Positions 6,364 to 24,425 of a stretch of 64,000 nt of DNA are shown here, in pieces. The notes under the pieces were generated by a model. The model saw only the letters and a list, made by a program, of their open reading frames with translations, was not told the DNA's origin and made no database searches. The stretch lies in assembly GCA_964650645.1 (NCBI GenBank), contig CAZYUH010000001.1, positions 639,202 through 703,201 on the forward strand, read 5' to 3'. The stretch's first letter is position 1, and every line of letters starts with the position of its first letter. The stretch is from an uncultured Candidatus Saccharibacteria bacterium. GTDB lineage: Bacteria > Patescibacteriota > Minisyncoccia > Phycocordibacterales > SBAW01. The position numbers were made by a program, and so were the translations under genes.

Positions 6364-9195
6364 CTACGCTACCACAAGCGCGGCTATTTTGCCCGGCACG
6401 TAGAGCGCCTTCTTTTCCTCCTTTCCGTCGAGCCATTTGGACGCGGCGGCGCGGGCGGCGGCAAGCGCCTCCGCTTCGGTCGCATCGGGCGCTATGGAGA
6501 TAGTGGCGCGCACTTTGCCGTTCACCTGCACGGCAATAGTGACGCTTTCCTGCGCCAGCTTCGACGCGTCGGCCTCGGGCCACAGTGCTGTGTGCACCGA
6601 GCCCTCGAACCCTGCCGTGCTCCACAGCTCTTCCGTTATATGCGGCGCGAACGGCGCCAAGAGCTTTAAAAACGCCTCCCACTGCCCGCGGCCTATCGCT
6701 TTGGCGCTCTCCGCGGCATTGAGGAATATCATCATCGCGCTCACCGCCGTGTTGAATTTGAACGAGGCGATGTCGCCGCCCACCTTGGCAACGGTCCTAT
6801 GGAGCTCCGCCTCAAGCGCCTCGACCGGCGCGTCCCGCACCAAGCTCTCCAGTTTCCATACGCGCTCTATGAAGCGGCGCGAGCCGGTCAGGTTCTCGGT
6901 GCTCCAGCGGATCGTGTTCTCGAACGGGCCCATGAACATCTCGTAGATGCGGAACGCGTCGGCGCCGTGCTCGGCCACCACGTCGTCCGGGTTTATGACA
7001 TTTCCGTAGCGCTTGCTCATCTTGCGGCCGTCCTCCGCGAGGATGAAGCCCAGGAACTCGAGCCGCGCGAAGGGTTCAATGGTCGAGACCGCGCCAATGT
7101 CGTAGAGGAATTTGTGCCAGAAGCGCGCGTATATGAGGTGGCGCACCGCGTGGTCGCCGCCCACGTACACGTCGACGGGCGCCCAATACTTCTCCTTGTC
7201 GGGCGCCACGAGCGCAGATGCATTATGCGGGTCCATGAAGCGCAGGTAATACCACGAGGAGCCCGCCCATTGCGGCATGGTGTTGGTCTCGCGCCGGGCG
7301 GGACCGCCGCATTCGGGGCACGTCGTATTGACCCACGACTCTATGGCCGCCAAGGGCGATTCGCCGGTGCCGGAGGGCTCGTAGCTCTCGACTTCGGGCA
7401 AAAGGACCGGCAATTGGTCCTCAGGAACGGCTACGGCGCCGTCCTTGGGGCAATGGATGATCGGGATGGGCTCGCCCCAGTAGCGCTGGCGGCTGAAGAC
7501 CCAATCCTTGAGCTTGTAATTGGTCGTCATTTTCCCGCCCACGGCCTCGGTAATCGCGCGCCTGGCTTCCGCACTCTCCATGCCGTCGAATGCGCCGGAA
7601 TTGATGAGGTAGCCCTGCCCGGCAATCGCCTCGTCGCGGTGCAGCAGGCGCCACACGAGCTTTTGGTGCTCAGGGGTGAGGCGCGACGCGACTTCGGCCT
7701 CATCGGCCCATGCGAGCGTGTGGAGCGCCTGCTCGCGTTCGGATATGCTGCCCTGCCCCTCAAGGCCGTCGACTTCGGCGAGGAGAGCCCATGCGTGCGC
7801 GCAGCGGTTCTCGTTCTTGTGCGAGGCGAAATAGCGGGCTGCGGTAATCCAGGGCGCCAATTTTATTATCTTCACGCCCTCCAGCGCGGCTTCTTCCTTA
7901 ATTTCCGCAAGAGCGGCCTGCTCGGGCGTCTGGCCCGGCTCTATGCCGCCCATAATGGCGGTCGTAAGCCCTTCAAGCGAGCCGTGCCAATCCAAAAGGG
8001 CGAATTTGCCGGTGTGCTTGTCGCGCAGGTGGACTATTACCGTGTCGCGCTTCACTTCTTCCAGGCCCGGCTCGGGCGGATTGTCCGCGTCCGCCTCGCA
8101 GGGCACGACGACTTGCCTGACAGGCAGGCCGAACTTCCGGGCGAACTCAAAGTCGCGCTCGTCATGCGCAGGCACGGCCATGATGGCGCCTGTGCCGTAC
8201 TGACCAAGCACGTAATCGGCGATAAATACGGGAATCTCCTCGTTGTTCGCCGGATTGACGGCCTTGATTCCCTTCAATTCCACGCCGGTCTTCTCTTTTG
8301 CCGCGCCGCGCTCAATTTCGGTCTTTTGCTCGGCCGCTTTCGCATAGGAAAGCGCTTCATCCCGGTTTTCCACCCTGTCTGCCAGCTTTTTTACAAGCGG
8401 ATGCTCGGGCGCCAGCACCATGTACGTGGCGCCAAAGAGCGTGTCGGCGCGCGTCGTAAACACGCGCACCTTCTCGTTAGAATCCTTGAGCGCGAAGTCT
8501 ATCTCGGAGCCTTCCGAGCGGCCTATCCAGTTCCTTTGGGCCTCCTTTATGTGCTCGGGCCACTGGAGCTGGTCGAGGTCGGCGAGCATGCGGTCGGCGT
8601 AGTCGGTTATTTTGAGCACCCACTGCGGCAGGCGCTTCTTCTCCACCTTGGTGCCGCACCGCTCGCATTCGTCGCCGTCGAGGTCCTCGTTGGCGAGCCC
8701 CGTCATGCATGACGGGCACCAGTTGATGGGCTCATCGCTCTGGTACGCCAGCCCCTTCTTGAACATCTGCAGGAATATCCATTGCGTCCACTTGTAGAAC
8801 TCCGGATCGGTCGTGTTTATCTCGCGGCTCCAGTCGTAATCGAAGCCGATATTGGCCAATTGCTCCTTGAACGTGGCGATGTTCTTTTGGACCGCCGCGC
8901 GCGGGTGCACCTTGTGCTTTATCGCGAAATTCTCCGCCGGAAGGCCGAACGCGTCCCAGCCCATGGGGTGGAGCACGTTGTGCCCGCGCATGCGCATGTG
9001 GCGGCTGTAGATGTCGGTGGCGATGTAGCCTTTGGGGTGGCCTACGTGGAGCCCTTCGCCCGAGGGGTACGGGAACATGTCGAGCACGAACGTCTTGGGC
9101 TTCTGCGAGCCGTCCTCCGCCCTGTAAATGCCGCTTGCGGCCCAGGCATCCTGCCACTTCTTCTCTACCGTACGGTGGTCGTATGGCCCCTTCAT
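6364..9195 (-). CDS. leuS: Leucine--tRNA ligase
   Basis: HIGH-type motif region (PYPSGEGLHVGHPKGY), KMSKS, full-length class I LeuS similarity; 943 aa. Confidence 0.95.
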   Translation of the reverse strand: MKGPYDHRTVEKKWQDAWAASGIYRAEDGSQKPKTFVLDMFPYPSGEGLHVGHPKGYIATDIYSRHMRMRGHNVLHPMGWDAFGLPAENFAIKHKVHPRAAVQKNIATFKEQLANIGFDYDWSREINTTDPEFYKWTQWIFLQMFKKGLAYQSDEPINWCPSCMTGLANEDLDGDECERCGTKVEKKRLPQWVLKITDYADRMLADLDQLQWPEHIKEAQRNWIGRSEGSEIDFALKDSNEKVRVFTTRADTLFGATYMVLAPEHPLVKKLADRVENRDEALSYAKAAEQKTEIERGAAKEKTGVELKGIKAVNPANNEEIPVFIADYVLGQYGTGAIMAVPAHDERDFEFARKFGLPVRQVVVPCEADADNPPEPGLEEVKRDTVIVHLRDKHTGKFALLDWHGSLEGLTTAIMGGIEPGQTPEQAALAEIKEEAALEGVKIIKLAPWITAARYFASHKNENRCAHAWALLAEVDGLEGQGSISEREQALHTLAWADEAEVASRLTPEHQKLVWRLLHRDEAIAGQGYLINSGAFDGMESAEARRAITEAVGGKMTTNYKLKDWVFSRQRYWGEPIPIIHCPKDGAVAVPEDQLPVLLPEVESYEPSGTGESPLAAIESWVNTTCPECGGPARRETNTMPQWAGSSWYYLRFMDPHNASALVAPDKEKYWAPVDVYVGGDHAVRHLIYARFWHKFLYDIGAVSTIEPFARLEFLGFILAEDGRKMSKRYGNVINPDDVVAEHGADAFRIYEMFMGPFENTIRWSTENLTGSRRFIERVWKLESLVRDAPVEALEAELHRTVAKVGGDIASFKFNTAVSAMMIFLNAAESAKAIGRGQWEAFLKLLAPFAPHITEELWSTAGFEGSVHTALWPEADASKLAQESVTIAVQVNGKVRATISIAPDATEAEALAAARAAASKWLDGKEEKKALYVPGKIAALVVA

Positions 9196-10234: not shown

Positions 10235-10358
10235 ATATATTTAAAGACGCGCGGTTACTGTTACGCTTACTATAGTACCACCCCTAGATGCCTGGCCCCA
10301 TCCTTTTACATGAAGCGCGCGGCTTGCGCTTTAGAATCCATACTATACTTAAAGGCAT

Positions 10359-13202
10359 ATGAAGATTAGTTATAAATCCGCAGGCATCGCCCTGTTATTA
10401 GCGTTCCCGTTCCTCGGTTCCGCAGCCACTACCAGCGATATCCCCCTTACCTTCAACGACGCCGTGTTCAGCGGCGTTACGAATTCAGGTTCGGTGAATC
10501 TGCCTAACGGCGGGATGCTCTCCAATAAGAGCATCACCGTTGACGGCCCCGCCGCCTCGGTCCTCTGCCAGGGCTCCTGCGTCCTGGAGCGCGTGCGCGT
10601 CGACTCCGCCGAAGCCGTCCGCGTCGGCGGCAGCGGCACGGTAATGATTAACAACTCGTACCTCGAGGCTACCGGCTCGGGCGACGACCACGCGGACACC
10701 ATCCAGGCCTACGCGCCGGGCGACCGCGGCACTATCAGCATCTCCAACACGTCCATAGTCGCGCACAACACCGCCGCGACCGCGGGCCTCTTCGTGGCCG
10801 ACAACTGGACCGGCACCATCAATCTCAACAACGTGGTCTTTAACGGCGGCCCGTTCGGCCTGCGCCTCCACCCCGACACGGGCGGCGACAACATCATATA
10901 CGCCAAGGATGTCTACTTCGTGGGACCCTTCGGCTATAACCCGATCCTCATGAGCGACTACGGCGGCCATAAGAACATCATCAAGCAGTGGGAGAACGTG
11001 CGCCATGCGACGATCGTGAACGGCAAGCTCGTCCCCGGCGATCTCATCCCCTGCCCGGTTTCAAGCTGCGGCAATGAGTCGTCTCCGACCACCCCCACTA
11101 CCCCGACTACGCCCACGACGCCGACTGCTCCGGCTTCGACTAAGTTCTCGACCGGCAGCCGCGTGCAGGTAGTGAACGGCCCGCTCAACGTGCGCACGGC
11201 CGCCACCACGGCCGCCACCCTGCTGGGCTCCCAGACAAACGGTTCCGCCGGCACCGTCGTGGGCGGCCCCACGGCTCAGGGCGGCTACATTTGGTGGAAC
11301 ATCAACTACGACTCGGGCGTCGACGGCTGGAGCGTAGAGAACTACCTTGCGGCCTACACCGCGCCTACGACGCCGACTACTCCCACCACTCCAACGACCC
11401 CCACCACTCCGGAGGTCAAGGATATTGAAAAGCCCACGACGCCGTCCGGCCTTACCGCGACCGCGGATTCCTCTTCCCAGATCAGCCTCTCGTGGGAGGC
11501 GTCCAGCGACGACGTGGGCGTCACCGGCTACGAGGTGTTCCGCAACCGCAGGTATGTCGCCACGGCGGCGGGCACGACCTACGCCGATACGGGACTCTCC
11601 GACTCGACCACCTACAGGTACCAAGTGAGGGCCCTGGATGCCGCGAACAGGCACTCGTCCAAGTCCAAGGCCGCGAAGGCGAGGACCCTTGAGGACGGTT
11701 CGGCTCCCGCGACGCCGACGGAACCGACCGCTCCGACAGCCCCGTCCACGCCCACCTCAAGCACGGGAATCCCCCTCAGCTTCAACGACGCCATGTTCAG
11801 CGGCGCCGAGAATTCGGACGCGGTCAGGCTCTCTAACGGCGGATCCGTGAGCAACAAGAGCATTACCGACACCGGCGATACCGCATCGGTCGTCTGCACG
11901 GGCGCGTGCACCGTCGACCGCGTCCGCATCAGTTCGCGCGAGGGCGTCCGCGTCGGCGGCAGCGGCACCGTCAGCATCAATAATACGTATATGGAGGTCA
12001 ACGGCACCGGCGACGACCATGCGGACGGCATCCAGGCCTACGCGCCGGGCGACCGCGGCACCATAAAGATGCGCAATTCCACTATTGCCATGGGCACCAC
12101 GGCCGTTAACTCCGCGTTCTTCGTCGCAGACAACTGGACCGGCACTATCGACCTCGAGAACGTCGTCATCAAGGGCGGCCTGTACGGGTTCCGCGTCCAC
12201 CCCGACACGGGCGGCGACAACACTATCTCGATGAAGGACGTGTACTTCGTCGGGCCGTTCCAGTACGGCCAGATCCTCATGACCGACGTTGCGGGCCACA
12301 AGAACAACATCGTCAAGTGGGAGAACGTCCGCAATGCGACGATCGTGGACGGCAAGCTCGTCCCCGGCGCGCTTATCCCCTGCCCGGCTTCCAACTGCGG
12401 CAGCACGTCTTCAAGCGAGCCGGAAGACCCTGAGCCGGCCCCGGCGACTCCTGAAGAGCCCGCTCCTTCGCAGCCGTCCGCTCCCGCTCCTTCAAGCGGC
12501 AGCGTCTCCTCGCTCTGGAGCGCCTCCGATACTCCCGTAACCGCAAGCGATCCGGATACGAACGCGGTCGAGCTGGGCATGAAGTTCTCGACCAACGTCG
12601 CGGGCAAGGTAACGGGCGTGCGCTTCTACAAGGGCTCCCAGAACACCGGCACGCACACCGGCAGCCTGTGGTCCTCTTCGGGCAGCCTCCTTGCGACCGG
12701 CACGTTCACTAACGAGAGCGCTTCGGGCTGGCAGACGCTTACCTTCTCGTCTCCCGTCAGCATCTCGGCGAACACGACCTACGTGGTCTCCTACCACACC
12801 AGCGTAGGCAGGTACGCGGGCGACAAGGACTACTTCGGCAGCGCGCGCACCAGCGGCCCCATTACGGCGCCCAGGAACGCGGGCGTGTACAAGTACGGCG
12901 CGGGCGGCTTCCCCACCCAGTCGTACGAATCGAGCAACTACTGGGTAGACGTGCTGTTCGTGCCGGAGGGCGTAGTCGCGGGCGCATCCTACTCTCCGCT
13001 GGCTATCGGCGACACGGTCAAGACCAAGGCGAACCTCAACGTGCGCTCGGCGCCGGGCGGCGCGGTCGTGGGCGTAGCGTCCCTTGGCTCTGCCGGAGTG
13101 GTGCAATCCGCGCCGCAGTCCGCGGGCGGCATCACGTGGCTGCGCGTCACGTACCAGAACGGGCTCAGCGGCTGGAGCTCCGCCGGGTACCTGACCCGCT
13201 AG
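10359..13202 (+). CDS. Large secreted multi-domain surface protein: 2x pectate-lyase-like beta-helix domain, PT-rich linkers, SH3b, fibronectin-III, DUF4082, C-terminal SH3b
   Basis: Signal peptide MKISYKSAGIALLLAFPFLGSAAT; two ~215-aa paralogous domains (IPLTFNDAVFSG... and IPLSFNDAMFSG...); TPTTP repeats; FN3 (ISLSWEASSDDVGVTGYEVFRN); DUF4082 signature (VELGMKFSTNVAGKVTGVRFYKG...NYWVDVLF). Confidence 0.7.
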   Translation: MKISYKSAGIALLLAFPFLGSAATTSDIPLTFNDAVFSGVTNSGSVNLPNGGMLSNKSITVDGPAASVLCQGSCVLERVRVDSAEAVRVGGSGTVMINNSYLEATGSGDDHADTIQAYAPGDRGTISISNTSIVAHNTAATAGLFVADNWTGTINLNNVVFNGGPFGLRLHPDTGGDNIIYAKDVYFVGPFGYNPILMSDYGGHKNIIKQWENVRHATIVNGKLVPGDLIPCPVSSCGNESSPTTPTTPTTPTTPTAPASTKFSTGSRVQVVNGPLNVRTAATTAATLLGSQTNGSAGTVVGGPTAQGGYIWWNINYDSGVDGWSVENYLAAYTAPTTPTTPTTPTTPTTPEVKDIEKPTTPSGLTATADSSSQISLSWEASSDDVGVTGYEVFRNRRYVATAAGTTYADTGLSDSTTYRYQVRALDAANRHSSKSKAAKARTLEDGSAPATPTEPTAPTAPSTPTSSTGIPLSFNDAMFSGAENSDAVRLSNGGSVSNKSITDTGDTASVVCTGACTVDRVRISSREGVRVGGSGTVSINNTYMEVNGTGDDHADGIQAYAPGDRGTIKMRNSTIAMGTTAVNSAFFVADNWTGTIDLENVVIKGGLYGFRVHPDTGGDNTISMKDVYFVGPFQYGQILMTDVAGHKNNIVKWENVRNATIVDGKLVPGALIPCPASNCGSTSSSEPEDPEPAPATPEEPAPSQPSAPAPSSGSVSSLWSASDTPVTASDPDTNAVELGMKFSTNVAGKVTGVRFYKGSQNTGTHTGSLWSSSGSLLATGTFTNESASGWQTLTFSSPVSISANTTYVVSYHTSVGRYAGDKDYFGSARTSGPITAPRNAGVYKYGAGGFPTQSYESSNYWVDVLFVPEGVVAGASYSPLAIGDTVKTKANLNVRSAPGGAVVGVASLGSAGVVQSAPQSAGGITWLRVTYQNGLSGWSSAGYLTR

Positions 13203-13791: not shown

Positions 13792-14778
13792 CTAGCCGTG
13801 GAGGAACTCTATCGTATCCCCCTCCTGCACCACGTATTCCTTCCCTTCGGTGCGTATCCAGCCCTTCTCGCGCGCGCCGGCGCGGCTGCCGGCCTCTATG
13901 AGCTTCTGCCAGTTGATGACCTCGGCGCGGATGAACTTGTCCCTGAAATCGCTGTGTATCGCGGCGCCCGCTTCAGGGGCCGTAGAGCCCCTTTTAACCG
14001 TCCAAGCGCGGCTCTCGGCCTCCCCGGTGGTAAAGAAGCTCATGAGCCCCAAAAGCTCGTAGCCCTTGCGTATGAGGTCGTTTATGCCGTCCTCGAACAC
14101 GCCGTACTCCTGGCGGAACGACTGCTTGTCCTCGCCATGCAGGTCCTTCAGCTCGTGTTCTACATTGGCGTCCACCACCACCCACGTCTTGTCGGCCAGG
14201 AACTCCATGAGCCGCTGCCAGCGCGGGTCGGCCTGCATCTCGTCCAGATTATGCCCGCCCGATTCCTTGTTAAGCACGTATAAGACGGGCTTCGCGCTAA
14301 GCAGGCCCGCAAGCGGCTCCTCGCTTGCCCCCTTGCCCTTCTTGGCCTGGCGCTTCTCCTCGCGCTCCTGGTCGGCAAGCGCGAGCTCGGTGTGTATGAG
14401 CTCTATGTCGGCCAGGGGGTCGATACCTTCCTGCGTGTTGGTGATATTGGGGTTCTCGAATATGCGCACCACGTGGGCTATGGCGTCCACCTCGCGGATA
14501 TGCTGCAAAAACTGGTTGCCAAGGCCCTCGCCCTCGCTGGCGCCCTTCACCAGGCCCGCGATGTCCACGAACTCGACCGCCGCAGGCACCTTGCTCTTCG
14601 ATTTGGAGAATTCGGCGAGCCTGTCGAGCCGCTCGTCGGGCACGGCCACCACGCCTACCGACGGGTCTATGGTGGCAAACGGGTAATTTGCGATGAGCAC
14701 GCTCTTTTTCGTGAGTGCATTAAAGAGCGTGGACTTCCCCACGTTGGGCAGGCCGACTATGCCGATACTGAGCGCCAT
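13792..14778 (-). CDS. ychF: Ribosome-binding ATPase YchF (Obg-like ATPase)
   Basis: G1 motif GIVGLPNVGKSTLFNAL, TGS-like C-terminus (YVVQEGDTIEF). Confidence 0.9.
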   Translation of the reverse strand: MALSIGIVGLPNVGKSTLFNALTKKSVLIANYPFATIDPSVGVVAVPDERLDRLAEFSKSKSKVPAAVEFVDIAGLVKGASEGEGLGNQFLQHIREVDAIAHVVRIFENPNITNTQEGIDPLADIELIHTELALADQEREEKRQAKKGKGASEEPLAGLLSAKPVLYVLNKESGGHNLDEMQADPRWQRLMEFLADKTWVVVDANVEHELKDLHGEDKQSFRQEYGVFEDGINDLIRKGYELLGLMSFFTTGEAESRAWTVKRGSTAPEAGAAIHSDFRDKFIRAEVINWQKLIEAGSRAGAREKGWIRTEGKEYVVQEGDTIEFLHG

Positions 14779-14835
14779 TTAGTGGTATGTATACCTCATT
14801 TTGCGGGTTTTGTCCTCTTTATCGCGCGGGCGCGC

Positions 14836-14866
14836 CTCCACGCAAAAAGGCCGAGAAGCGCTCGGC
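14836..14866 (-). terminator. Rho-independent terminator for the small secreted peptide gene
   Basis: Minus strand AAGGCCGAGCGCTTCTCGGCCTTTTTGCG. Confidence 0.6.
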
Positions 14867-14881
14867 CTTGCGTGCGGGGCC

Positions 14882-15127
14882 CTAGAAGCTGAACGGGAAT
14901 CCGTTCGGGAACGACGGGAAATTGATGGTCGGAATGCGGATGTCCGGGATGCGGATAGGCGGGAACTTTATTTCCGGGAAGCGTATCACCGGGAAATGTA
15001 TGGGCGGGATGTTCGGGAACCCGCCGCCTCCGCCGTAGCCGAAGTCGGCGGACGCCGCTGACGGCGCGAGCAGCACGACGGCGAATGCAGCCGAGGCCGC
15101 GTACGTCGCAAGTTTTCTAGTGGTCAT
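14882..15127 (-). CDS. Small secreted peptide with tandem Phe/Pro/Ile repeats (FPxIRxP x7)
   Basis: Signal peptide ...LLAPSAASA then GYGGGGGFP NIPPIHFP VIRFP EIKFP PIRIP DIRIP TINFP SFPNGFPFSF; DNA has ~15-bp cgggaa-containing tandem repeats. Confidence 0.5.
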   Translation of the reverse strand: MTTRKLATYAASAAFAVVLLAPSAASADFGYGGGGGFPNIPPIHFPVIRFPEIKFPPIRIPDIRIPTINFPSFPNGFPFSF

Positions 15128-15203
15128 AATGAAGAAGGTCAGATATCTGATAGTTAAGGCCAGCTCAAATGCCGCAGGTTTCCCGTCCTGCCTTATTTCC
15201 AGG

Positions 15204-16919
15204 CTAATCCGCTACGCGATACAAGTCAACACTGGGGGTGCTGATAACTTTCTCAAGCGCCGCAGAGCCCAAAAAGGGATACGAATAGGGGTCGTCATGG
15301 GCCTCGTCGGGGGTGTATATCACGTACCTGATCCCGAGGCCCGCTAATAATCTCAGTGTTTCGTCCGGATCGGCGTCATTGTCGGTAATGGCCGCCGAAA
15401 GGCGCGCGTACCCGGGGAGGCGCGACTGCTGTCCGCCGTCGCCTACTTCCCCTATTTCGGCACTCGCACCCTGATAAATGGTACAGTCGAAATATGAAGA
15501 TGAGGTGTTGGCCGTTAATAGACGGTTGTTGAAAACCGGCGTGTAGTACAGGTGCCAAGGGAGAAATACCGCCGCACAAGCATCATCCCGCTTCAATGTA
15601 TCGTTCACCGTTGCCCACCCGTCCGGGTACCACACGGGCCGTAATTGGCCCGCCAGGCCGAAGAGCGTGGTGGGCGTATACAAGAGCGGGATGCAGCACA
15701 GCGCGGCCATAGCCAAGCGCGGGCGCTTGAAGCGGCTGGCAATGTAACCTGCGCCCAATCCTCCTACAAGCGCGTACGCGAGCACCAACACGGCGCTCCA
15801 CTTCTGCGTATCCCTGAAGCCGCTCCAGAACGGCACATGATTGAACATCCATGCGTTGGCGTTTTGGAATATGCCCGGCCCGATGCCGGAGGAGAACACG
15901 AGCGCCAGCGCGCCTGCGCCGCACAGCCACAGCACGATAAAGCGGTTGCCCCGCCTGCGCAGGCCCGCGACAACTCCCGCGCACACAACGCCCGCAAGGG
16001 CGATGCCTGACAGCGCCCAGAGCAGGCCGCTCTCTTTAGGCCAGGCAAAGTACGTGATCCAGCGCTCGTGCTCGCCCCAAAAGCCGTACAGCGCCGCTAC
16101 GTTCCCTGCCGTGCCCAGTACCGGGTCGCTGGCGGTATAAAAGGCCCGCACGTCGCCCGCGCCGAAGTCGCTCAGCGCCGTTGCGGGCGCCGCAAAGGCC
16201 GGCACGAGCCAGTACAGGCTCGCAAGCGCAAATAGCAGACCGCAGGCGCATAAGCGGCCCAGGAGCGCCCGCGCCATGCGGTACTCCCCCGCGCACAGCA
16301 TGCGCGTTACGGAGGCCAGCGCGAATACGGCAAGCAGGACGCATCCCATGACCATAATGTGGAGCGAGAACATGCCCATGCATAGGAGCCACGCGCAGGC
16401 GTGCAGGGCGTGCCGCCACGCAAGGGTCCTGTACAGGCGCGTCAGCGAGCACGCGAGGGGGAACAGGAAGGCGTACGCCATGAGCACGCCCCACTGCCCC
16501 GCCAACATCCGCTCGTATACGAACGGGTTAACGGCGAACAGCGCCGATGCGAAATAGCGCCCAGCCCGATGGTCCTCGAACGGATAGAAGCGCAGAGGCA
16601 GGTAAAAAAGCAAATAGAACAGCCCGAACAGGATGCCCTTCTGGATGACCCAGACGGGCATCCAAAAATGCAGGAGGTATATAAGGTACCTGTACGGAAA
16701 CGCCGCCGCCGAAAGCCCCTCGTATGAAGGGAACGCCGCGTGTGGCCCGAAGACCATGTCGAGCGTGAGCACATAGCCCGGTAACAGCATCTGCCAGAGC
16801 ACTACCACGGCGCCCAGCGCCGCGATAAGCGCATGCTTGTAGTACAGCGCCGCAGCGCCTGCGCACGCCTTTAATGCCAGCGCCTTTGCCGCCCACGCGT
16901 TTGCCAATAGCCTTTTCAT
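15204..16919 (-). CDS. Polytopic membrane protein, putative GT-C-fold glycosyltransferase
   Basis: ~12 TM helices followed by ~130-aa C-terminal soluble domain; start taken at MKRLLANAW (ATG 16919-16917), directly abutting a palindromic operator. Confidence 0.45.
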   Translation of the reverse strand: MKRLLANAWAAKALALKACAGAAALYYKHALIAALGAVVVLWQMLLPGYVLTLDMVFGPHAAFPSYEGLSAAAFPYRYLIYLLHFWMPVWVIQKGILFGLFYLLFYLPLRFYPFEDHRAGRYFASALFAVNPFVYERMLAGQWGVLMAYAFLFPLACSLTRLYRTLAWRHALHACAWLLCMGMFSLHIMVMGCVLLAVFALASVTRMLCAGEYRMARALLGRLCACGLLFALASLYWLVPAFAAPATALSDFGAGDVRAFYTASDPVLGTAGNVAALYGFWGEHERWITYFAWPKESGLLWALSGIALAGVVCAGVVAGLRRRGNRFIVLWLCGAGALALVFSSGIGPGIFQNANAWMFNHVPFWSGFRDTQKWSAVLVLAYALVGGLGAGYIASRFKRPRLAMAALCCIPLLYTPTTLFGLAGQLRPVWYPDGWATVNDTLKRDDACAAVFLPWHLYYTPVFNNRLLTANTSSSYFDCTIYQGASAEIGEVGDGGQQSRLPGYARLSAAITDNDADPDETLRLLAGLGIRYVIYTPDEAHDDPYSYPFLGSAALEKVISTPSVDLYRVAD

Positions 16920-17236
16920 TCTAGTTTTTTGCAAAAAGCTAGAATGGCGTGGGCGCGTGGTGTCAGCTTATGGCGCACGTTCACGCTGTCGCTGCGCTTG
17001 GCCACAAGGCCCGCCATGGCCATCTTACGCAGGTGGTCGGACGCGTTCATGTACCCTATCGAGAGCCTCTGGGAGATTTCGTCGATAGACAGCTCGGGCT
17101 CGCGCTTAAGCAGGTCCAGTATGTGCAGCCGGCGGTGGTTCGCAAAGCCCTTTACCACGCGCTCAAGCCTCCGGTACTGCGCCCCTCCCTTTTGCCCCGC
17201 TTTTCCCTCTGTTTTGCGGCCCCTCGTTTGCATCAT
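16916..17236 (-). CDS. ArsR/SmtB-family HTH transcriptional regulator
   Basis: HRRLHILDLLKREPELSIDEISQRLSIGYMNASDHLRKMAMAGLV is a typical ArsR wHTH; 106 aa. Confidence 0.7.
   Translation of the reverse strand: MMQTRGRKTEGKAGQKGGAQYRRLERVVKGFANHRRLHILDLLKREPELSIDEISQRLSIGYMNASDHLRKMAMAGLVAKRSDSVNVRHKLTPRAHAILAFCKKLE
16922..16945. promoter_or_regulatory. Palindromic operator copy 1 (TAGTTTTTTGCAAAAAGCTAGAAT), overlaps arsR 3' end and the start of the downstream membrane-protein gene
   Basis: 24-bp exact repeat of the element at 17258-17281; core TTTTTGCAAAAA is a perfect palindrome flanked by CTAG..CTAG. Confidence 0.55.
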
Positions 17237-17257
17237 GCGGATATACTATACAGTTTT

Positions 17258-17281
17258 TAGTTTTTTGCAAAAAGCTAGAAT
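17258..17281. promoter_or_regulatory. Palindromic operator copy 2, overlapping the -35 region of the arsR promoter
   Basis: Identical 24-mer; on the minus strand it is followed by TATAGT 8 nt before the arsR ATG. Confidence 0.55.
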
Positions 17282-17751: not shown

Positions 17752-20595
17752 TTAGTGTGCGCGTGAGCGATACTTGCGGCGGACATGCCCTACCCCGGCG
17801 TAGCCCAGGTAGCCCAGACACCCGGCCAGCGTCAGCCCCGATACAATGAGCCCGAGGTAAAACCAGCGCTGGGGCCAGAATTCTATCACCATTTCAATGT
17901 CATAGCTCCCGCCGGGGTTTTGGGTACAGCCCGCCAGTTTTTGGACTTCGCACAGCTCTGTCGTGTCTACGTACCACCCGTTTAGGAAGCCATTGAGCTT
18001 GTAATGGTACTCGTCTCCTACCCTGTCGGGCTTGGCAAACGGCCACCAGCTATCCAATCGCCCTTGCACTTTGGCATTGTTGAGCTCTAAGTACCACTTG
18101 TCGTGATAACTCTCGCTCATGCCCAGGAAGAACGGCGTTGTTGCACCCCTTATGTACACCAGCTTCTTGGTCGGGCTTATAAGATCAAAGGTGGTGGATG
18201 CGGGTTGCACAAGCTGAGCATCCGGCTCGCTTACTAGATAATAAGAGCTGGATATATCCGGAATCTCGACAAGTTTGAAATTATCGTAACGGTTGATATT
18301 ATTAGTTTTTACGTCCGTCTCTTTTGCATATACATACAAACTGAGAGTTGTAGCCCCTGCAGGGACTTTTATGGTACGGGTTAAAGTATGCCAGGCAGTA
18401 TCGGTTAGCGGCAGATTCTCACTATCAGATGTCTTAACTGGGTCGTTAAAGCCAATGTAATAGGAAGCGGATTTTGCATTAGAACTTTGATAGTCGAAGC
18501 TCAATAAATATGTGCTAGTTGCATTAATAGGGAGTTCTATAGAGATGCAAGCAGTATGTCGAGTTGCCTCAAGTTGTAGAGATTGAACGCCGTCTGTCTT
18601 GTTATGGGCATCCAATTTCATTCCTAAAATAGGCTTTTGGTCATAATTATGACAATCCCCAACTGCTTGCTGCCAAAAACCTCTCTCAAAAGACCCATTG
18701 GTAATTAAATTTTTAAATGTGTAATTTTTATTTGTATAAGTAAATTGGTTATCGATACCATTTAATAAAGTAGTGCTCGAATATATGGGTTCATTATCAA
18801 TAGATAGTTTGTCGAAATTATTTAATGCGTAAAGTATATTTTTATTGGCAGAGTATATGGTTGTAGTAGCAGTAATACTCGAACTTGCGGTTGATATATT
18901 TTGAAAATTGACATTCTCAAATAACTGGTCAACATATGTTGCTGAAGAGGTGGCATTAGCTTTATTGAATAAGTAGAAATAAAAACCATTATGCAGTTGA
19001 TTGTTAACAAAATTATACTTTTCATCTAGATTATTTTTAGATTCAAAAGAATACAAATAATCAAATGTAAATATATTTCGTATCGATCTTATGTTTTTAA
19101 AAATAAACAAATTTGGATCTAGATACATATTGTTGACACGTGTCCAGTTACTATCTTTTGTGAGAGCGTTTATCTGATTCTCTGATACAGGAGTTGATAT
19201 ACAGGTTATTACGTAACCGGCACTATTTAGCAACGATAACGCATCTTGAATATTATCTTCTGATATATGTTTAACTTCTATATCTTTTGAAAGAAAATGC
19301 TGATTTAAAGTAAAAAATTTTATTTGATCAAGTTCATTACATATGCCGCCATCAACCCAAATAACCATGCTGTGGTTAGGTATATTGTTTAGTGATTGAA
19401 CTAGATCAGTATCAGGTAATTTGGGTATAAGTAATTTATTATAAATTTCAGTAAGCATGAATCCACACCAACCAAAAATTATTATAGTAAGAAAAGATAA
19501 TGATATAAATTTCAACGTTCTTGACATTCTCGAAATTCCCAAACCTAGAATTATTACTGCAAGTATGGGGATATATAATTGCCACTTAAGAGGTGATCTA
19601 AAGGCCCATCCACCCGGAAGATTATTTAGAATTGATAATATTATGTTTGAACCAAAGTTATTTAATGCCAACCAATATAAAAGTAGTAATATTCCTAGAA
19701 ATAATCTTGAAAAGAAACCTTCTATATTTTTATTATTAGAGTAAAAAAATGCAATTATAAGTAAAATCTGAAAAGAAAAACCAAAAATAACAAAAATAAT
19801 CTTATACCCTGAATTATAGTAATCATAATCAGTGAGAACATCTCTAGACCAAGTAAATGTATTAACCAAACTACCCGAGTTTGCAAACCCAATAAATGAA
19901 TCAGTATTTGAAGAGTTTGCATTTATCGTAGATACTATGGAAGCTTTATTTAAAGCTTGTGTTGAATAAATGCTCAATATAAGAAAGGCACTCAACATTC
20001 CACAAATTACTAATGCTTTTATGGCACTTATTATTAGTTCTTTTCTAAAAGGATTGCTGTAGAGCCGTGTTACAAAGAAAATTGTCGCTATAAAAGTATT
20101 TACGATGAAAGTAAACGGATGAATTAATGAAACGATTAATCCAAAATAAGCTAAAATAAAGTAACGAGGGCTTTTTGTCTGAATATATTTTTTTAAAAGT
20201 ATTATTACAAAAGGCAACATTGAGGCGCCTAAAATTAATCCTATTTTCGAAATATTTGCTAGAAATATCGGGTTAATAACATAAAATAAACTCAACAAAA
20301 AACGTGTATGAATATCTATTTTTTTAAAAAAAGATAATGCAAAATATGCAGAACATGCCGCAATCACAAGCGCTAGAAATAAGTATAAATAAGATACACC
20401 AAGGTTTCCAAGAATTGGATAAAATATAAGCAAAAAAAGCCTTATTGGTAGTCGAAAAACGCCATCCAAATTAATAGCTCCATTTTGGGAAGACCAAAGA
20501 TAGAATGTTTTTAGAAAATATATCCATGCTTCAAATGGAAACCCAAAATCACCGTTAGCTAGAAATCCTAAATTAAATATATTACCGAAGTACAT
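17752..20595 (-). CDS. Large polytopic membrane protein (YfhO/GT-C-like N-terminal 13 TM region + ~450-aa extracytoplasmic domain + C-terminal TM anchor), mosaic composition
   Basis: 947 aa; N-terminal 2/3 encoded by AT-rich DNA, C-terminal third by GC-rich DNA; C-terminal domain looks like a carbohydrate-binding/jelly-roll domain. Confidence 0.5.
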   Translation of the reverse strand: MYFGNIFNLGFLANGDFGFPFEAWIYFLKTFYLWSSQNGAINLDGVFRLPIRLFLLIFYPILGNLGVSYLYLFLALVIAACSAYFALSFFKKIDIHTRFLLSLFYVINPIFLANISKIGLILGASMLPFVIILLKKYIQTKSPRYFILAYFGLIVSLIHPFTFIVNTFIATIFFVTRLYSNPFRKELIISAIKALVICGMLSAFLILSIYSTQALNKASIVSTINANSSNTDSFIGFANSGSLVNTFTWSRDVLTDYDYYNSGYKIIFVIFGFSFQILLIIAFFYSNNKNIEGFFSRLFLGILLLLYWLALNNFGSNIILSILNNLPGGWAFRSPLKWQLYIPILAVIILGLGISRMSRTLKFISLSFLTIIIFGWCGFMLTEIYNKLLIPKLPDTDLVQSLNNIPNHSMVIWVDGGICNELDQIKFFTLNQHFLSKDIEVKHISEDNIQDALSLLNSAGYVITCISTPVSENQINALTKDSNWTRVNNMYLDPNLFIFKNIRSIRNIFTFDYLYSFESKNNLDEKYNFVNNQLHNGFYFYLFNKANATSSATYVDQLFENVNFQNISTASSSITATTTIYSANKNILYALNNFDKLSIDNEPIYSSTTLLNGIDNQFTYTNKNYTFKNLITNGSFERGFWQQAVGDCHNYDQKPILGMKLDAHNKTDGVQSLQLEATRHTACISIELPINATSTYLLSFDYQSSNAKSASYYIGFNDPVKTSDSENLPLTDTAWHTLTRTIKVPAGATTLSLYVYAKETDVKTNNINRYDNFKLVEIPDISSSYYLVSEPDAQLVQPASTTFDLISPTKKLVYIRGATTPFFLGMSESYHDKWYLELNNAKVQGRLDSWWPFAKPDRVGDEYHYKLNGFLNGWYVDTTELCEVQKLAGCTQNPGGSYDIEMVIEFWPQRWFYLGLIVSGLTLAGCLGYLGYAGVGHVRRKYRSRAH

Positions 20596-20597
20596 AC

Positions 20598-21665
20598 CTA
20601 TTTATTGTTAAAAGATATGAGGTTCTGAATATAAATTTTAGATATATCTAGGATCGCCTCATCCTTTTGACCCAGAGATTTCAAAAGCTGTGTACATTTA
20701 TTATCATAAGAAATAGGGATATATTTGACACCACTTAAGGCAGCTAGGAGCATCCCATGATACTGAGGCAAGATACAAACAAGACTTTCCTTATTGTTTC
20801 GTAAAAATAAATAAAAACTAATTGGATTGCCGCTAAAATTTTTTATTATAATTCGATCAGTATTTAATAAGTTTGCGTGTAATTTTTGGAACTCAAGCAC
20901 ATCTGAATACATACTATTTTTAAAACTTGGATGCAGAGCTAGAAGTAAAAAATTATCAGTGCTTTTATATTGAATAAACTTTTCAATTACTGCAACGTAA
21001 TTAGAAATTTCAGTTGTACTATTACCTCGATAACTAACAATATAATTAATTTGTTTAGGATCTATTGGAAACAGTGATTTAGCCTCGACCTTATAAGCTT
21101 CGAGGTTCAAATTATTTAACAAAAAGGCAATATCTTGAGTTAGAACAACTTTCCGTTTAAAACCTAAACCAGAAAATGAATAGTATGTTTCTTCATCTCT
21201 TGCATAAATTTTATTTGACGCAAGTCCAGAAATAAATGCACCGAAGTGGCCAATCATTCCTGTCGACTTATAATATCCAACGCCAATAAGATACACTTCT
21301 TTTCTAAGCACGAATCGCGCTGCAAGTAATAAAAAGGAAAGTATTAAAACTTTTAAATTGAAATCCAGCCCCCAGAGTCCACCTCCTCCGATTATAGTTC
21401 TTTTGCTTACAAATAAAGCCTTTAGGACTCCCATTATCGAAGGCTTAATCAAACGAGCTTCTTCAAACGAATGGTGAGAATCGGAATAAATTTCACTATT
21501 TAAATAAATAAATTGTGTATTTTTTATATTTCTTGATTTGAAATAATTTAGCAAAACTTCTAGAATTAGCTCATCTCCCATATTTCCACCACCATAAAAA
21601 CCAAACAAAAAAGAATTGGAAAAATCAAGCTTATCTAATTCTAATTTTAATTTTCTTGTTTCCAT
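20598..21665 (-). CDS. Polysaccharide pyruvyl transferase family protein
   Basis: FYGGGNMGDELILEVLL ... IIGGGGLW motifs typical of PF04230 (CsaB/WcaK-like). Confidence 0.7.
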   Translation of the reverse strand: METRKLKLELDKLDFSNSFLFGFYGGGNMGDELILEVLLNYFKSRNIKNTQFIYLNSEIYSDSHHSFEEARLIKPSIMGVLKALFVSKRTIIGGGGLWGLDFNLKVLILSFLLLAARFVLRKEVYLIGVGYYKSTGMIGHFGAFISGLASNKIYARDEETYYSFSGLGFKRKVVLTQDIAFLLNNLNLEAYKVEAKSLFPIDPKQINYIVSYRGNSTTEISNYVAVIEKFIQYKSTDNFLLLALHPSFKNSMYSDVLEFQKLHANLLNTDRIIIKNFSGNPISFYLFLRNNKESLVCILPQYHGMLLAALSGVKYIPISYDNKCTQLLKSLGQKDEAILDISKIYIQNLISFNNK

Positions 21666-21666
21666 A

Positions 21667-22518
21667 TTAACAACTTACTCTTGCCCACAGTTTCGTTTTT
21701 TTTATAAAATTAAAAAAATAATTTTTTTGTTCCGCATTAATAAAACTGTCTAGTAAAAAAGAAAGCAAAGTATATGCATACATTCCAATCTTGTTGGGCG
21801 GCGAGTATTTTCTTAAATACTCCATCCGTGACTGAAACATTAATTTTGTTTTGATTTTAAAATACTGATCCGTACTATTTTTATGTTTTCTGTATTTATA
21901 TAAATATTCAGGCAAATTGGCTCCTTGTTTACCAGCCATTATAAATCTTAAAAACATATCTACATCTTCAATGTAATCTTTGTCATCACGATACGCTCCG
22001 ATTTCAAGAACATCACTTTTTCTAAACATTATTGTTGGATGAAGAAAAGGGTAATGAAAAAAATATAACTTAGATATAACATGTGGTTCAATTGGAAACT
22101 CAATGGAAGCAAGCTCTATATTGCTTTCATTAATAATAATCGCAAAAGTGCCAACAAGGGATAAGGCAGGATTCTTGGATAAATATAGATATTGTTTTTC
22201 GAGTCTGTCAGGTGTCGAGATATCGTCCCCATCCATACGCGCAATTATTTCACCCCTAGCTATACTTAGCCCTTTATTTAAATTTTTTGCGATTCCTATA
22301 CGTTCAGTATTTTTTATATATATAATTCGCGGGTCAAATAAATAACGTTTTATAATTTTTTCAGACTCATCAGTGGATGCATCATCAATAATAATGAATT
22401 CAAAATCAGAGTACGATTGATTCAAAATACTTTCAATTGATTCACGTAAAAAAGCCTCGGCATTTCTAAAAGGCATTACTACAGATATTTTAGGTTGTTT
22501 AGTCATATGATTTTGCAA
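21667..22518 (-). CDS. Glycosyltransferase family 2
   Basis: ISVVMPFRN...IIIDDASTDES...MDGDDIS (DxD) GT-A signature; true start may be the Met at 22506. Confidence 0.75.
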   Translation of the reverse strand: MQNHMTKQPKISVVMPFRNAEAFLRESIESILNQSYSDFEFIIIDDASTDESEKIIKRYLFDPRIIYIKNTERIGIAKNLNKGLSIARGEIIARMDGDDISTPDRLEKQYLYLSKNPALSLVGTFAIIINESNIELASIEFPIEPHVISKLYFFHYPFLHPTIMFRKSDVLEIGAYRDDKDYIEDVDMFLRFIMAGKQGANLPEYLYKYRKHKNSTDQYFKIKTKLMFQSRMEYLRKYSPPNKIGMYAYTLLSFLLDSFINAEQKNYFFNFIKKTKLWARVSC

Positions 22519-23326
22519 CTAGTATACCTATTCCACCAACTCCAAACTCACAAGTTTTCATAAAAAGCATGCCGACTCCAATGAAAAGATTTTTAAAAAG
22601 TTTAATCGGGCGCGAGAAGAAAAGGATGTAACGGTTAAAAATCCCCGCCGTTCTCTTGCTGGAATTGATAGCACCTTTGGAGTGGCAGAGATACGCCTTT
22701 GCCTGCTTGGCGTAATAATACTTTTTCTTAAGGGTTTTGCCGAGACTTATCTTCCCTTCGTTGTGATAAATTGCGTCGCTGATTCGCGCGATCTTCCCTA
22801 GCGCCTCTGCCCTGTCAGACAAGTCCCAGTCTTCGCCGGAAATCAGGGCTTCGTTATATCCCCCGACCTTATCAAAAGTTGCCTTGCTAAAGAATCGAGC
22901 GGCTTCAATGGCGTCTACCCCGACATAAAAGCTCCGCTCAAGCTTTTTGCACTGCGCCCAGAACCCCTCGCCAAACGACTCTTCGGGGATGATAATACCC
23001 GCCGCGTCCGCGCTTGAGGCCATTACCCGCACGCAGCTTCCGATAACGCTCTTGGAAACCACCATGTCGCTGTCAATAAACACGACATGCTCCCCTGACG
23101 CCTGCGCCGCGCCAAAATTGCGCTGTGCGCTGCGCTCTGGGCCTTTGGTGAATACCTTGTCCGTAAAGCGCCGCGCGATTGCCTGGGTGTCGTCGGCACT
23201 GCTGTTGTCTACCACGATTAGCTCGATGTTCTTGTATGACTGCTCCTTAATCGAGCGCAAGCACGCCTCTAAAAACTCCGCAGAGTTCTTTGTGGGCACG
23301 ATGACTGATACGAGCGGGTTAGGCAT
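22499..23326 (-). CDS. Glycosyltransferase family 2
   Basis: VSVIVPTKNSAEFL...LIVVDNSSADDT...IDSDM; start at MPNPLVSV (internal Met of ORF 22499..23398); overlaps downstream GT2 by 20 nt. Confidence 0.75.
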   Translation of the reverse strand: MPNPLVSVIVPTKNSAEFLEACLRSIKEQSYKNIELIVVDNSSADDTQAIARRFTDKVFTKGPERSAQRNFGAAQASGEHVVFIDSDMVVSKSVIGSCVRVMASSADAAGIIIPEESFGEGFWAQCKKLERSFYVGVDAIEAARFFSKATFDKVGGYNEALISGEDWDLSDRAEALGKIARISDAIYHNEGKISLGKTLKKKYYYAKQAKAYLCHSKGAINSSKRTAGIFNRYILFFSRPIKLFKNLFIGVGMLFMKTCEFGVGGIGILVAKSYD

Positions 23327-24425
23327 GGGCAAGAATGTCTTTGAACTGCGCGTAGCTTTTCTCGAAAGTAATGCCCTTGCTCCACTCCCAGGCGGCATGG
23401 CGCATGTGCTCGTAGCGCGGCTGGTCTTGTAGGAGCGCGGCCATGGACTCTGCCAGCGCCTCGGGGGTGTTTTTGGCGGTTACAAGCCCCGTGACGCCGT
23501 TTTGCACGCTGTCGCGCAGGCCGTCGCAATTATACACAACCGCCGGGGTGCCCTGGCTGTTTGCTTCGGTCACGACAAGCCCCCACCCTTCCTTGACTGA
23601 CGCGACCGGCAAGATATGCGACTTTTGGAGCAATTCTACTTTTTTATCTCCGCTTACCTTCCCCAGGCACTCGATGCTGTCTTTGTAGGGCGATTGCTGT
23701 ATGTGCCGGGCGACGCGCGCGGCGTATGCGCCGTCGCCTGCGCCCGCGATAATGAGCCTTGCAGTAGGCACCGAGCGCTTGAGCATCTCGAAGGCCCGCA
23801 CGATATGCGCGGTGCGCTTCATGGGCCGTATCGCGCCCAGCGCGAGGATGGTCGGGTGGGGATACTTTTGTATGCTAAGGCTTGCGACCGGCGTGAGCTC
23901 TATCCCTTCGCTTATGATGCTGATGTGCTCGGGCTTAAAGCCGTGGCGCATGAGGTCTTTTTTGGTGCTTTCTGATACGGTAACGACTTCCTGCCCGCCG
24001 AGCGCCAGCACGCGCAGGTAGAGGGGCTCCAGCAGGTAGCCAACAAGCGACGCCGGAGCCCATAGCTGATAGAACCATATTTCCCTGCATAATTGATGAA
24101 CGAACAGAATAACCCTTTGTTTTGCGTATAGTTTGGCGAAAAACGGGATGGTGTTTACCTCGTCTATGACGACATCGGGCCAGCCCTGCAGGTGCTTTTT
24201 GTAGTAGCGGTACGCCCGCCAGTACACGCTGTAGCGCCCGCCGAGCCTGATTATAGTGAAGCCGTTGCGCTCTTCCCTTTCAGCGCTGCCCTCGAATCCG
24301 CCCACTATGAAGCGCACCTCGTGGCTGTCTTTGGCAAGGCGCTTTGCCAGCTCCTCGTTGACCACCTCGGCGCCGCCCGCCAGTGGATGGCGCATGTCTT
24401 TCCATGTCAGCCAGAGTATCTTCAT
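23319..24425 (-). CDS. Glycosyltransferase family 4 (GT-B)
   Basis: MKILWLTW...GGAEV N-terminus and C-terminal EGWGLVVTEANSQGTPAVV motif; ATGA overlap with upstream gene at 24422-24425. Confidence 0.75.
   Translation of the reverse strand: MKILWLTWKDMRHPLAGGAEVVNEELAKRLAKDSHEVRFIVGGFEGSAEREERNGFTIIRLGGRYSVYWRAYRYYKKHLQGWPDVVIDEVNTIPFFAKLYAKQRVILFVHQLCREIWFYQLWAPASLVGYLLEPLYLRVLALGGQEVVTVSESTKKDLMRHGFKPEHISIISEGIELTPVASLSIQKYPHPTILALGAIRPMKRTAHIVRAFEMLKRSVPTARLIIAGAGDGAYAARVARHIQQSPYKDSIECLGKVSGDKKVELLQKSHILPVASVKEGWGLVVTEANSQGTPAVVYNCDGLRDSVQNGVTGLVTAKNTPEALAESMAALLQDQPRYEHMRHAAWEWSKGITFEKSYAQFKDILAHA

Follow-up and report, generated by a model that had tools for sequence, protein, structure and literature searches.

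TonB proteins contain proline-rich spacers that are non-globular and are thought to be rigid and extended and to span the envelope. These spacers are built of (Glu-Pro)n and (Lys-Pro)n repeats, are highly charged, and join the membrane anchor to the C-terminal domain. Among the known partners of exopolysaccharide synthases, IcaD and PgaD are integral to the membrane and have two helices each, and BcsB is periplasmic, large, and anchored at its C terminus. Short proline-rich peptides are also known from animals, where Bac5, Bac7, and indolicidin are strongly cationic, carry PRP/XPPX motifs, and are extended rather than helical. In Patescibacteria, the small exported proteins are almost entirely uncharacterized, and the cell surface mediates host attachment.

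Here we describe an 81-residue open reading frame (ORF) in a stretch of DNA of 64,000 nucleotides, referred to below as the window. By its YchF relatives, the window belongs to Patescibacteria and lies close to MAGs of the Paceibacteria type. The product predicted from this frame shares with TonB spacers the character of a Pro-rich, non-globular, and putatively envelope-located segment but has no sequence relationship to them. It belongs to a tiny undescribed family, with four members among billions of predicted proteins, a conserved architecture, and a recurrent gene neighborhood.

An 81-residue frame for an exported pentad-repeat peptide

The coding sequence of the pre-peptide lies on the reverse strand at positions 14882 to 15127 (81 aa; stop codon TAG at 14882 to 14884), as read from the ORF list and the sequence. 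Its translation, MTTRKLATYAASAAFAVVLLAPSAASA|DFGYGGGGGFPNIPPIHFPVIRFPEIKFPPIRIPDIRIPTINFPSFPNGFPFSF (signal|mature), is identical to that given in the initial annotation. The window genome is ~62% GC, and 80-codon ORFs are frequent in all of its frames; because this GC content yields abundant long chance ORFs, ORF length alone says little. Codon usage was scored against 16 confident genes of the window; real genes score 0.16 to 0.62 bit/codon. The log-likelihood of the frame at 14882 to 15127 was +0.43 bit/codon, and those of the other five frames were all negative. The GC3 of the peptide ORF is 0.79, versus 0.83 for the genome. Gene callers placed a gene for the exact 81-aa protein on at least 22 contigs, which come from several samples, SRR32005135, SRR29876768, and ERZ27320626 among them, and the call was positive on every carrier contig.

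No Shine-Dalgarno motif was found upstream of the peptide ATG. This is not a counterargument, since the majority of genes in the window genome also have none. An Rfam scan of positions 14500 to 15500 returned zero RNA families. An antisense ORF on the forward strand (14801 to 15061) scored negative for codon usage and was on that ground not accepted as coding. The exact peptide sequence is missing from the protein cluster table and is present in the gene-position index. The initial annotation had proposed a coding gene for a small secreted Pro/Phe-rich repeat peptide, and the codon usage, the gene calls, and the profile recovery reported below agree with that proposal. We conclude that the 81-aa ORF is very probably a genuine gene for a tiny exported peptide.

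Residues 1 to 27 form a Sec-type signal peptide (15047 to 15127, reverse strand; MTTRK / LATYAASAAFAVVLLAP / SAASA), with a predicted signal peptidase I (SPase I) site after A27. By rule-based inspection, R4 and K5 make its n-region basic, a hydrophobic core follows, and the cleavage site is preceded by Pro at -6 and by Ala at both -3 and -1. P22, A25, and A27 are invariant in the alignment of all four family members, and AlphaFold places a helix at residues 3 to 27. The residues, the helix, and the invariant positions all fit the signal peptide and 54-aa mature product first described, and SPase I cleavage after A27 is predicted to release that product. Such a cut would expose the N-terminal sequence DFGYGGGGGFPNIPPIHFPVIR. 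The peptide contains no Cys and thus no lipobox. The mature N terminus, D-F-G-Y-G-G-G-G-G (residues 28 to 36; 15020 to 15046, reverse strand), resembles a hinge with a Gly run; the relatives have Q-Y-G4-5 at this place, and G33 to G35 are invariant in the family alignment. The combination AxA-QYGGGG at the N terminus is also widespread among unrelated secreted proteins.

The pentad tract follows at residues 37 to 71 (14915 to 15019, reverse strand). It consists of FP NIP and six pentads with the consensus x-I-[H/R/K/N]-[F/I]-P. The six exact pentads are PIHFP, VIRFP, EIKFP, PIRIP, DIRIP, and TINFP, and partial units flank them on both sides. Stretches of the product include FPPIR, IPDIR, and IPTINFPSFPNGFPFSF. 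Six pairs of hydrophobic-Pro dipeptides are spaced by exactly 5 residues, a count that none of 100,000 composition-preserving shuffles equaled. The repeats originally noted are thus real at the protein level, with six exact units, partial units on either side, and a 5-residue register beyond chance. The third pentad position is Arg, Lys, His, or Asn in the window peptide and mainly His in its relatives. The product ends in a hydrophobic Phe/Pro tail, SFPNGFPFSF (residues 72 to 81; 14885 to 14914, reverse strand), where the relatives end in FFPL, FFTL, or FQFLSF; F70 and F73 are invariant in the family alignment. This tail has neither a transmembrane (TM) helix nor a basic end and carries no C-terminal sorting signal of the LPXTG or PEP-CTERM type.

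The mature peptide has a net charge of +1 in the window and 0 in the relatives. Its GRAVY value is 0.1 in the window and 0.6 to 0.8 in the relatives, and the composition is 18 to 23% Pro and 22 to 31% aromatic/His. An AlphaFold prediction made with the four-sequence alignment showed no secondary structure after the helix at residues 3 to 27 (mean pLDDT, 62), and the segment with the lowest pLDDT was residues 32 to 36. At this low confidence, the "extended" state of the model partly means "not predictable." Since a proline stands at every fifth residue, no helix or long strand is expected, and the tract would therefore be extended, polyproline-II or beta-like. As such a chain, the ~35-residue tract would be roughly 11 nm long.

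A probable four-member family of small peptides

A word-indexed protein search with the peptide alone returned no matches. An exhaustive phmmer search through 1.84 billion cluster representatives gave 52 matches, mostly unrelated long proteins with (x-hydrophobic-x-hydrophobic-Pro)n tracts. One match, P0047 (72 aa), has the overall architecture of the window peptide, with an E value of 6.9e-4 against 1.84 billion proteins. When P0047 seeded profile searches, two more sequences came up, P0053 (73 aa) and P0054 (70 aa), and no others. In all, sets of 1.84 billion cluster representatives and 5.8 billion clusters yielded three relatives, which bears out the original remark that such peptides are unusual. 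P0047, P0053, and P0054 are annotated as "hypothetical protein" in JGI/ENA metagenomes. Against Pfam, the window peptide gave only a sub-threshold match to TraW_N on the signal peptide, and it matched neither the Pfam pentapeptide repeat (the A[D/N]LXX beta-helix) nor other curated repeat families. NCBIfam and a PDB sequence search gave no match, and literature searches by motif strings and topic found nothing relevant.

The four members have the same plan. All are 70 to 81 aa long, with a Sec signal peptide that has Pro at -6 and AxA, and a mature start of [D/Q]-[F/Y]-G..G4-5. Six or seven pentads of the form x-[I/F]-[H/R/K/T/N]-[F/I/L]-P make up nearly the whole mature part, which closes with a short hydrophobic end in F or L. 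When P0047, P0053, and P0054 were the only sequences in a profile, it still picked up the window peptide end to end (44.5 bits, profile positions 13 to 72), and the best background score was 26 bits among 21,687 ORFs, many of them preselected for AxA-QYGGGG. With a repeat-only profile, the window peptide scored 15.9 bits and was still the top non-self match. Identity between the window peptide and its relatives is 39 to 41%. The relatives differ in having His where the window peptide has Arg or Lys and in having no acidic residues.

At the nucleotide level, the window gene is 46 to 48% identical to the genes of the relatives (48% to that of P0047). In the comparison with P0047, 22 of the 29 identical residues are encoded by different codons. 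The window gene is 62% GC and the genes of the relatives are 44 to 45% GC, in genomes of ~45 to 50% GC. Because the architecture is common to the relatives while their DNA is very different, conservation is at the protein level. Retention of the reading frame in relatives had been set beforehand as the test by which the coding claim could be refuted; both frame and architecture are kept, at the 46 to 48% DNA identity given above. Between P0047 and P0053 there are 10 synonymous and 10 nonsynonymous codon changes, versus 34 and 18, respectively, in the adjacent GT2 gene. As a rough estimate from these counts, P0047 and P0053 appear to be under moderate purifying selection, with a dN/dS of roughly 0.3. 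Generic pentad tracts of unrelated long proteins score as well as the small relatives or better. Homology between the window peptide and the three small peptides is therefore only probable, because low-complexity repeats can converge and generic tracts score equally.

The gene appears to be restricted to a narrow lineage. A synteny search by YchF through 185,579 species genomes gave 80 loci, and at none of them did a motif scan, tblastn, or a profile reveal a related ORF. In the closest genomes, whose YchF is 71 to 83% identical, the peptide gene is absent by motif, tblastn, and profile scans, so the lineage restriction predicted in the initial annotation holds locally. In the closest genome of all, L008 (83% YchF identity), the one inspected in detail, the gene order differs. 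A metagenome scan with the family alignment gave pattern matches, and no candidate among them was confirmed. A scan of metagenome DNA for the AxA-QYGGGG pattern gave at least 120 loci, with no family member among the matches listed. A viral contig scan and a plasmid tblastn search gave no matches.

Gene neighborhood, terminator, and strain variation

Upstream of the peptide gene and co-directional with it is a gene for a 571-aa polytopic membrane protein (15204 to 16919, reverse strand). This protein is MmpA-like by NCBIfam model NF053599 (E = 3.5e-52; 177.7 bits, under the 210-bit cutoff). MmpA is a corynebacterial membrane protein required for the export of trehalose lipids, with a likeness to the membrane portion of AftD, a GT-C enzyme (PMC8698533). 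The peptide gene starts 76 nt downstream of the MmpA-like gene, and no strong terminator separates the two. Further upstream is a co-directional surface-polysaccharide cluster (17752 to 26682, reverse strand; Pfam), which encodes a 947-aa membrane protein with CBM_4_9, a pyruvyl transferase, two GT2 proteins, one GT4 protein, and a Wzx-like flippase. Within this cluster is a low-GC island, with 28 to 39% GC at 18 to 23 kb versus ~62% elsewhere. A small membrane protein and a MarR/ArsR regulator are also encoded in the long co-directional envelope block, of which the peptide gene is the last gene.

The genes of the relatives lie ~60 to 65 bp downstream of a processive GT2 synthase, which carries a QxxRW-type motif and for which the best-scoring model is CelA/BcsA. 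P0047 and P0053 come from one and the same locus of closely related genomes (DNA identity, 91%), and the number of independent loci is therefore three. At all three, the peptide gene is directly downstream of a polytopic envelope-glycan/glycolipid membrane protein. The upstream neighbors come from two different families, MmpA-like in the window and CelA/BcsA-like GT2 in the relatives, and no homologue of the GT2 synthase encoded next to P0053 (L089, 27 to 1433) was found in the window. The narrower arrangement, a position downstream of a CelA/BcsA-like GT2, is thus not seen in the window, and the broader one, a position downstream of a polytopic envelope-glycan protein, is. The initial annotation had suggested that the peptide could be cell-wall associated. 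An association with the wall or envelope gains support from the gene context, namely, the MmpA-like gene and glycan cluster in the window and the GT2 gene in the relatives.

Downstream of the peptide gene is a hairpin followed by U5 that resembles an intrinsic terminator (14844 to 14872, reverse strand; core stem, 14849 to 14867; U5, 14844 to 14848). It lies 14 nt past the stop codon and folds at -18.1 kcal/mol (z = -2.68); of 200 shuffled sequences, 2 folded equally well. It is conserved in three haplotypes, with a single change in the U run in L001. A simple pattern scan missed this element. The gene thus has a terminator of its own, as had been stated at the outset. The upstream intergenic region of 76 nt (15128 to 15203, reverse strand) contains a perfect 12-bp palindrome, TCAGATATCTGA, at 15139 to 15150, 11 nt before the ATG. 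The palindrome has a single exact match in the window and is conserved among the haplotypes. The only hairpin in this region (15174 to 15191) is weak (-8.4 kcal/mol; z = -0.7), and for this reason read-through from, and co-transcription with, the MmpA-like gene may occur.

Three haplotypes were found by exact-protein look-up (7 loci read), and all encode 81 aa in 246 nt. Each differs from the window ORF at 1 to 3 sites, with 4 distinct sites in total, all at third-codon positions. This synonymous-only variation was discounted, because a look-up by exact protein returns only synonymous variants. The flanking genes of the haplotypes diverge from the window by 2 to 6%. The whole 480-bp region, including its noncoding parts, is ~99% identical among haplotypes, and in a sliding divergence profile between strains the bins over the peptide have some of the lowest values, which is not decisive, as other bins are equally low. 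A search through the neighboring 165-aa protein gave no further haplotypes.

The initial annotation also described matching tandem DNA repeats of ~15 bp and proposed that the tract might vary in length by slipped-strand mispairing. A 15-nt period does exist; it is weak, however, since no more than 2.3 copies of a 15-bp unit, with 80% matches, were detected by Tandem Repeats Finder (14930 to 14964). What recurs in the DNA at 15-nt intervals is chiefly TTCCCG, which encodes Phe-Pro, and the repeat is accordingly better kept as protein than as DNA. The data do not support slippage: the repeats are too imperfect as DNA, all three haplotypes (sampled by exact protein) have 81 aa with no length variants seen, and the repeat number stays at 6 to 7 pentads in the relatives. 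In this strain sample, biased toward the exact protein, the near-perfect DNA repeats and copy-number differences of contingency loci were not found.

Candidate functions and comparison with known systems

We favor the interpretation that the gene encodes an exported, extended, hydrophobic envelope peptide that acts with the surface glycan or glycolipid of the neighboring machinery, and we give this a probability of about 0.4. The pre-peptide would be exported by Sec and cut by signal peptidase I after Ala27. This would release a nearly uncharged and very hydrophobic peptide of 54 residues, which begins with a flexible hinge of five Gly, continues with six to seven pentads punctuated by Pro (x-I-basic-F/I-P), and closes with the Phe/Pro tail. 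The tract may form an extended polyproline-II or beta-like rod on which Ile/Phe and Arg/Lys/His side chains are shown at regular spacing. The peptide would then remain in the envelope rather than diffuse as a signal, and it could bind or coat a surface polymer or help to anchor the polymer to the wall. The pentad tracts that adjoin membrane anchors or putative peptidoglycan-binding domains in larger bacterial proteins (see below) speak for this interpretation. Several points count against it: Phe stacks on sugars less strongly than Trp or Tyr, the closest genomes do not have the gene, and the neighborhood link comes from three independent loci whose upstream neighbors are of two families. The probability was kept at 0.4 because everything beyond export is inferred, that is, cleavage, the extended conformation, the envelope location, and the glycan interaction. 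A more far-reaching proposal, which we regard as unlikely, is that the peptide represents a new class of dedicated extracellular partner of envelope-glycan machines. It would be a Pro-punctuated rod that displays Phe/Ile and His/Arg at a constant ~16 Å spacing and binds or templates the nascent polysaccharide or glycolipid as it leaves a BcsA-like or GT-C-related protein, and it would be shared, perhaps horizontally, by Patescibacteria and much lower-GC organisms.

The gene arrangement also bears on another explanation, in which the peptide is a small accessory subunit of the neighboring membrane machine (compare IcaD/PgaD and BcsB). In that case, an uncleaved N-terminal anchor, or docking of the mature peptide on the outer face of the synthase or MmpA-like protein, would let it aid the translocation or handover of glycan or glycolipid. 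The co-directional position ~60 to 76 nt downstream of a polytopic glycan-related protein at 3/3 independent loci is what such a subunit would lead one to expect, as is the lack of a strong terminator between the MmpA-like and peptide genes. The BcsA-like genes of the relatives have no BcsB-type gene beside them, on contigs of 2 to 4 kb that are too short to judge this. Nevertheless, the invariant AxA and the Pro at -6 argue for cleavage, and the partners, a GT2 synthase in the relatives and an MmpA-like protein in the window, belong to unrelated families; no homologue of that GT2 was found in the window. The peptide also matches no NCBIfam or Pfam model of known small subunits. A role as an accessory subunit is thus rather unlikely.

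A peptide that acts outward on membranes, as a toxin, a bacteriocin, or a host-interaction factor, would have a rod that enters the membrane of a host or competitor, in the manner of extended Pro/aromatic-rich antimicrobial peptides, and so aids the attachment of an episymbiont or permeabilizes the target. The cleavable signal peptide, the small size, the marked hydrophobicity with 22 to 31% aromatic/His residues, and the extended predicted conformation suit this explanation. So do the confinement of the peptide to one species-level lineage and an I/R/F/P composition that is reminiscent of Bac5. We nonetheless judge it quite unlikely. The net charge is just +1 in the window and 0 in the relatives, and no evident immunity or dedicated transporter gene stands beside the peptide gene. 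The relatives are paired with a glycan synthase, not with toxin/immunity genes, and the peptide is identical across strains whose flanks diverge by 3 to 6%, unlike the diversification typical of weapons. A resemblance to Bac5-type antimicrobials was considered and rejected on the net charge of +1 and on BLASTP, in which Bac5 showed no similarity. The leader is a hydrophobic Sec leader with AxA rather than the double-glycine leader of bacteriocins, and no C39-peptidase ABC exporter was found among the neighbors scanned.

A diffusible signaling peptide or pheromone would likewise be small, exported, and lineage specific, with its own terminator, but we consider it very improbable: no receptor kinase, processing protease, or export/modification genes are nearby, the repeat number is conserved in distant relatives, and a repetitive, very hydrophobic peptide of 54 residues is unlike known bacterial peptide signals. 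Equally improbable is a chance ORF in GC-rich intergenic DNA conserved for another reason, such as regulatory sites; the abundance of 80-codon ORFs at ~62% GC, the ~99% identity of the 480-bp region down to its noncoding parts, the missing Shine-Dalgarno motif, and the circularity of the synonymous-only variation would allow it, and it is opposed by gene-like codon usage solely in the frame at 14882 to 15127, by a canonical signal peptide with strict 5-residue periodicity, by relatives that keep the architecture at 46 to 48% DNA identity and a very different GC content, by the lack of an Rfam match, and by the other genes that have no Shine-Dalgarno motif.

At 45 to 54 residues (54 in the window peptide and 47 in P0047), the mature peptides are cheap to make and are candidates for how cells arrange envelope polymers. 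Should the peptide prove to be a glycan-binding or synthase-assisting rod, it would be a new type of small component in bacterial exopolysaccharide systems. As no more than a hydrophobic peptide of the wall, it would be a minor lineage-specific curiosity. The family contradicts nothing in current understanding.

Compared with known synthase partners, the relatives of the peptide likewise follow a CelA/BcsA-like GT2 gene, just as IcaD, PgaD, and BcsB are encoded just after their synthases. Unlike these proteins, the peptide has a cleavable signal and no further hydrophobic helix, and it matches no family model; it has a single N-terminal hydrophobic segment in place of the two TM helices of IcaD and PgaD. 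Bac5, Bac7, and indolicidin are similar in being short, exported, and rich in Pro, Ile, Arg, and Phe, but the window peptide differs in its net charge of +1 and its pentad register, and it does not show the strong positive charge with PRP/XPPX motifs of Bac5 and Bac7. The other phmmer matches include translated simple repeats and P0011, P0014, and P0015, which, from their sequences, we read as animal AHNAK/periaxin-like proteins. These have the same hydrophobic-x-hydrophobic-P-x period but are eukaryotic, intracellular, and very large, and the resemblance is compositional only.

Similar pentad tracts also occur in bacterial envelope proteins, where they adjoin membrane anchors or domains (P0042, P0005, P0046, P0049, and P0022). 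Labeled by eye, with no domain scan, these are an OmpA-like lipoprotein (P0042), SPOR-like proteins (P0005 and P0046), a surface protein (P0049), and an M56/BlaR-like protein (P0022); on that reading, the OmpA-like and SPOR-like domains next to the tracts would be peptidoglycan binding. The pentad logic is the same, and PEIRIPEIRIPAINF of P0022 is nearly identical to PPIRIPDIRIPTINF of the window peptide. The tracts look like extended spacers in exported or membrane-anchored proteins. They are usually acidic/basic with Val, Leu, and Ile, whereas the window tract uses Phe. They are also linkers within proteins of 200 to 700 aa or larger, flanked by folded domains or anchors, whereas the window tract makes up nearly the entire mature product. 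The pentad repeat type is a recurrent low-complexity theme, and what is new here is a stand-alone secreted peptide made almost wholly of pentads.

Sequences upstream of the peptide gene

Window positions 15139-15150 form a perfect palindrome of 12 bp, TCAGATATCTGA, 11 nt 5' of the ATG of the peptide gene. The window contains no other exact copy, and the palindrome is kept in all haplotypes. It is statistically unremarkable because of the count expected when mismatches are allowed. The palindrome may serve as an operator, with the MarR/ArsR-type regulator encoded at 16916-17236 on the minus strand as one candidate to bind it. The stop codon of the regulator overlaps the ATG assigned by gene callers to the MmpA-like gene, such that the end of the regulator gene falls within the MmpA-like start region (16916-16934). 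This overlap suggests that the regulator and the MmpA-like membrane protein, encoded just upstream of the peptide gene, are translationally coupled.

A Shine-Dalgarno motif is generally absent upstream of the start codons of genes in the window (e.g., 17237-17260, 10335-10358, and 10235-10260). At several of these genes, boxes resembling TATAGT, TATACT, or TATATA are located 8 to 20 nt 5' of the ATG, suggesting that the mRNAs of this organism are leaderless or have very short leaders.

Neighboring glycan genes and large proteins

Positions 18000-23000 form a sharp low-GC island of 28 to 39% GC, whereas the GC content elsewhere is ~62%. The island contains genes for a 947-aa membrane/CBM_4_9 protein, a polysaccharide pyruvyl transferase, and GT2 proteins, and it looks like a glycan module that was gained horizontally. 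Its content differs by strain: where the window has the membrane/CBM_4_9 gene, L003, another contig with the exact peptide, has genes for 195-aa and 289-aa products, and in L001, also a contig with the exact peptide, the product of the membrane/CBM_4_9 gene is 987 aa. Length also varies between strains for a secreted protein of 947 aa encoded at 10359-13202 on the plus strand, with a range of 933 to 941 aa. The N-terminal module of this protein is duplicated internally, and the sequence has Pro-Thr linkers as well as fn3, DUF4082, and SH3_3 domains. A NUDIX hydrolase domain (Pfam PF00293, E = 4.8e-07) appears to be present in the 943-aa leucyl-tRNA synthetase (6364-9195, minus strand), at residues 384 to 513, past the editing domain; such a fusion or insertion would be unusual.

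Peptide features in metagenome loci

The GT2-peptide loci of two small relatives, L088 (P0047) and L089 (P0053), are 91% identical. Similarity ends a few bases past the peptide stop codon (L088 976, L089 1729), where L089 has ~110 bp of extra sequence. Judging from this endpoint, it is the GT2-peptide pair that is conserved as a unit across these short contigs.

Among the matches listed for the AxA-QYGGGG pattern (L090-L209), the N terminus composed of a signal peptide followed by AxA-QYGGGG recurs in many unrelated secreted proteins from soil metagenomes (e.g., L208 at 12067, L187, L160, and L151). The carriers include a conserved family of ~130 to 200 aa that continues ...GSGKAIGIGVGAAAAGAGVLFLALHHHGAVTGCV. 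Given this recurrence, a Gly run at the start does not single out the small pentad-repeat peptide family.
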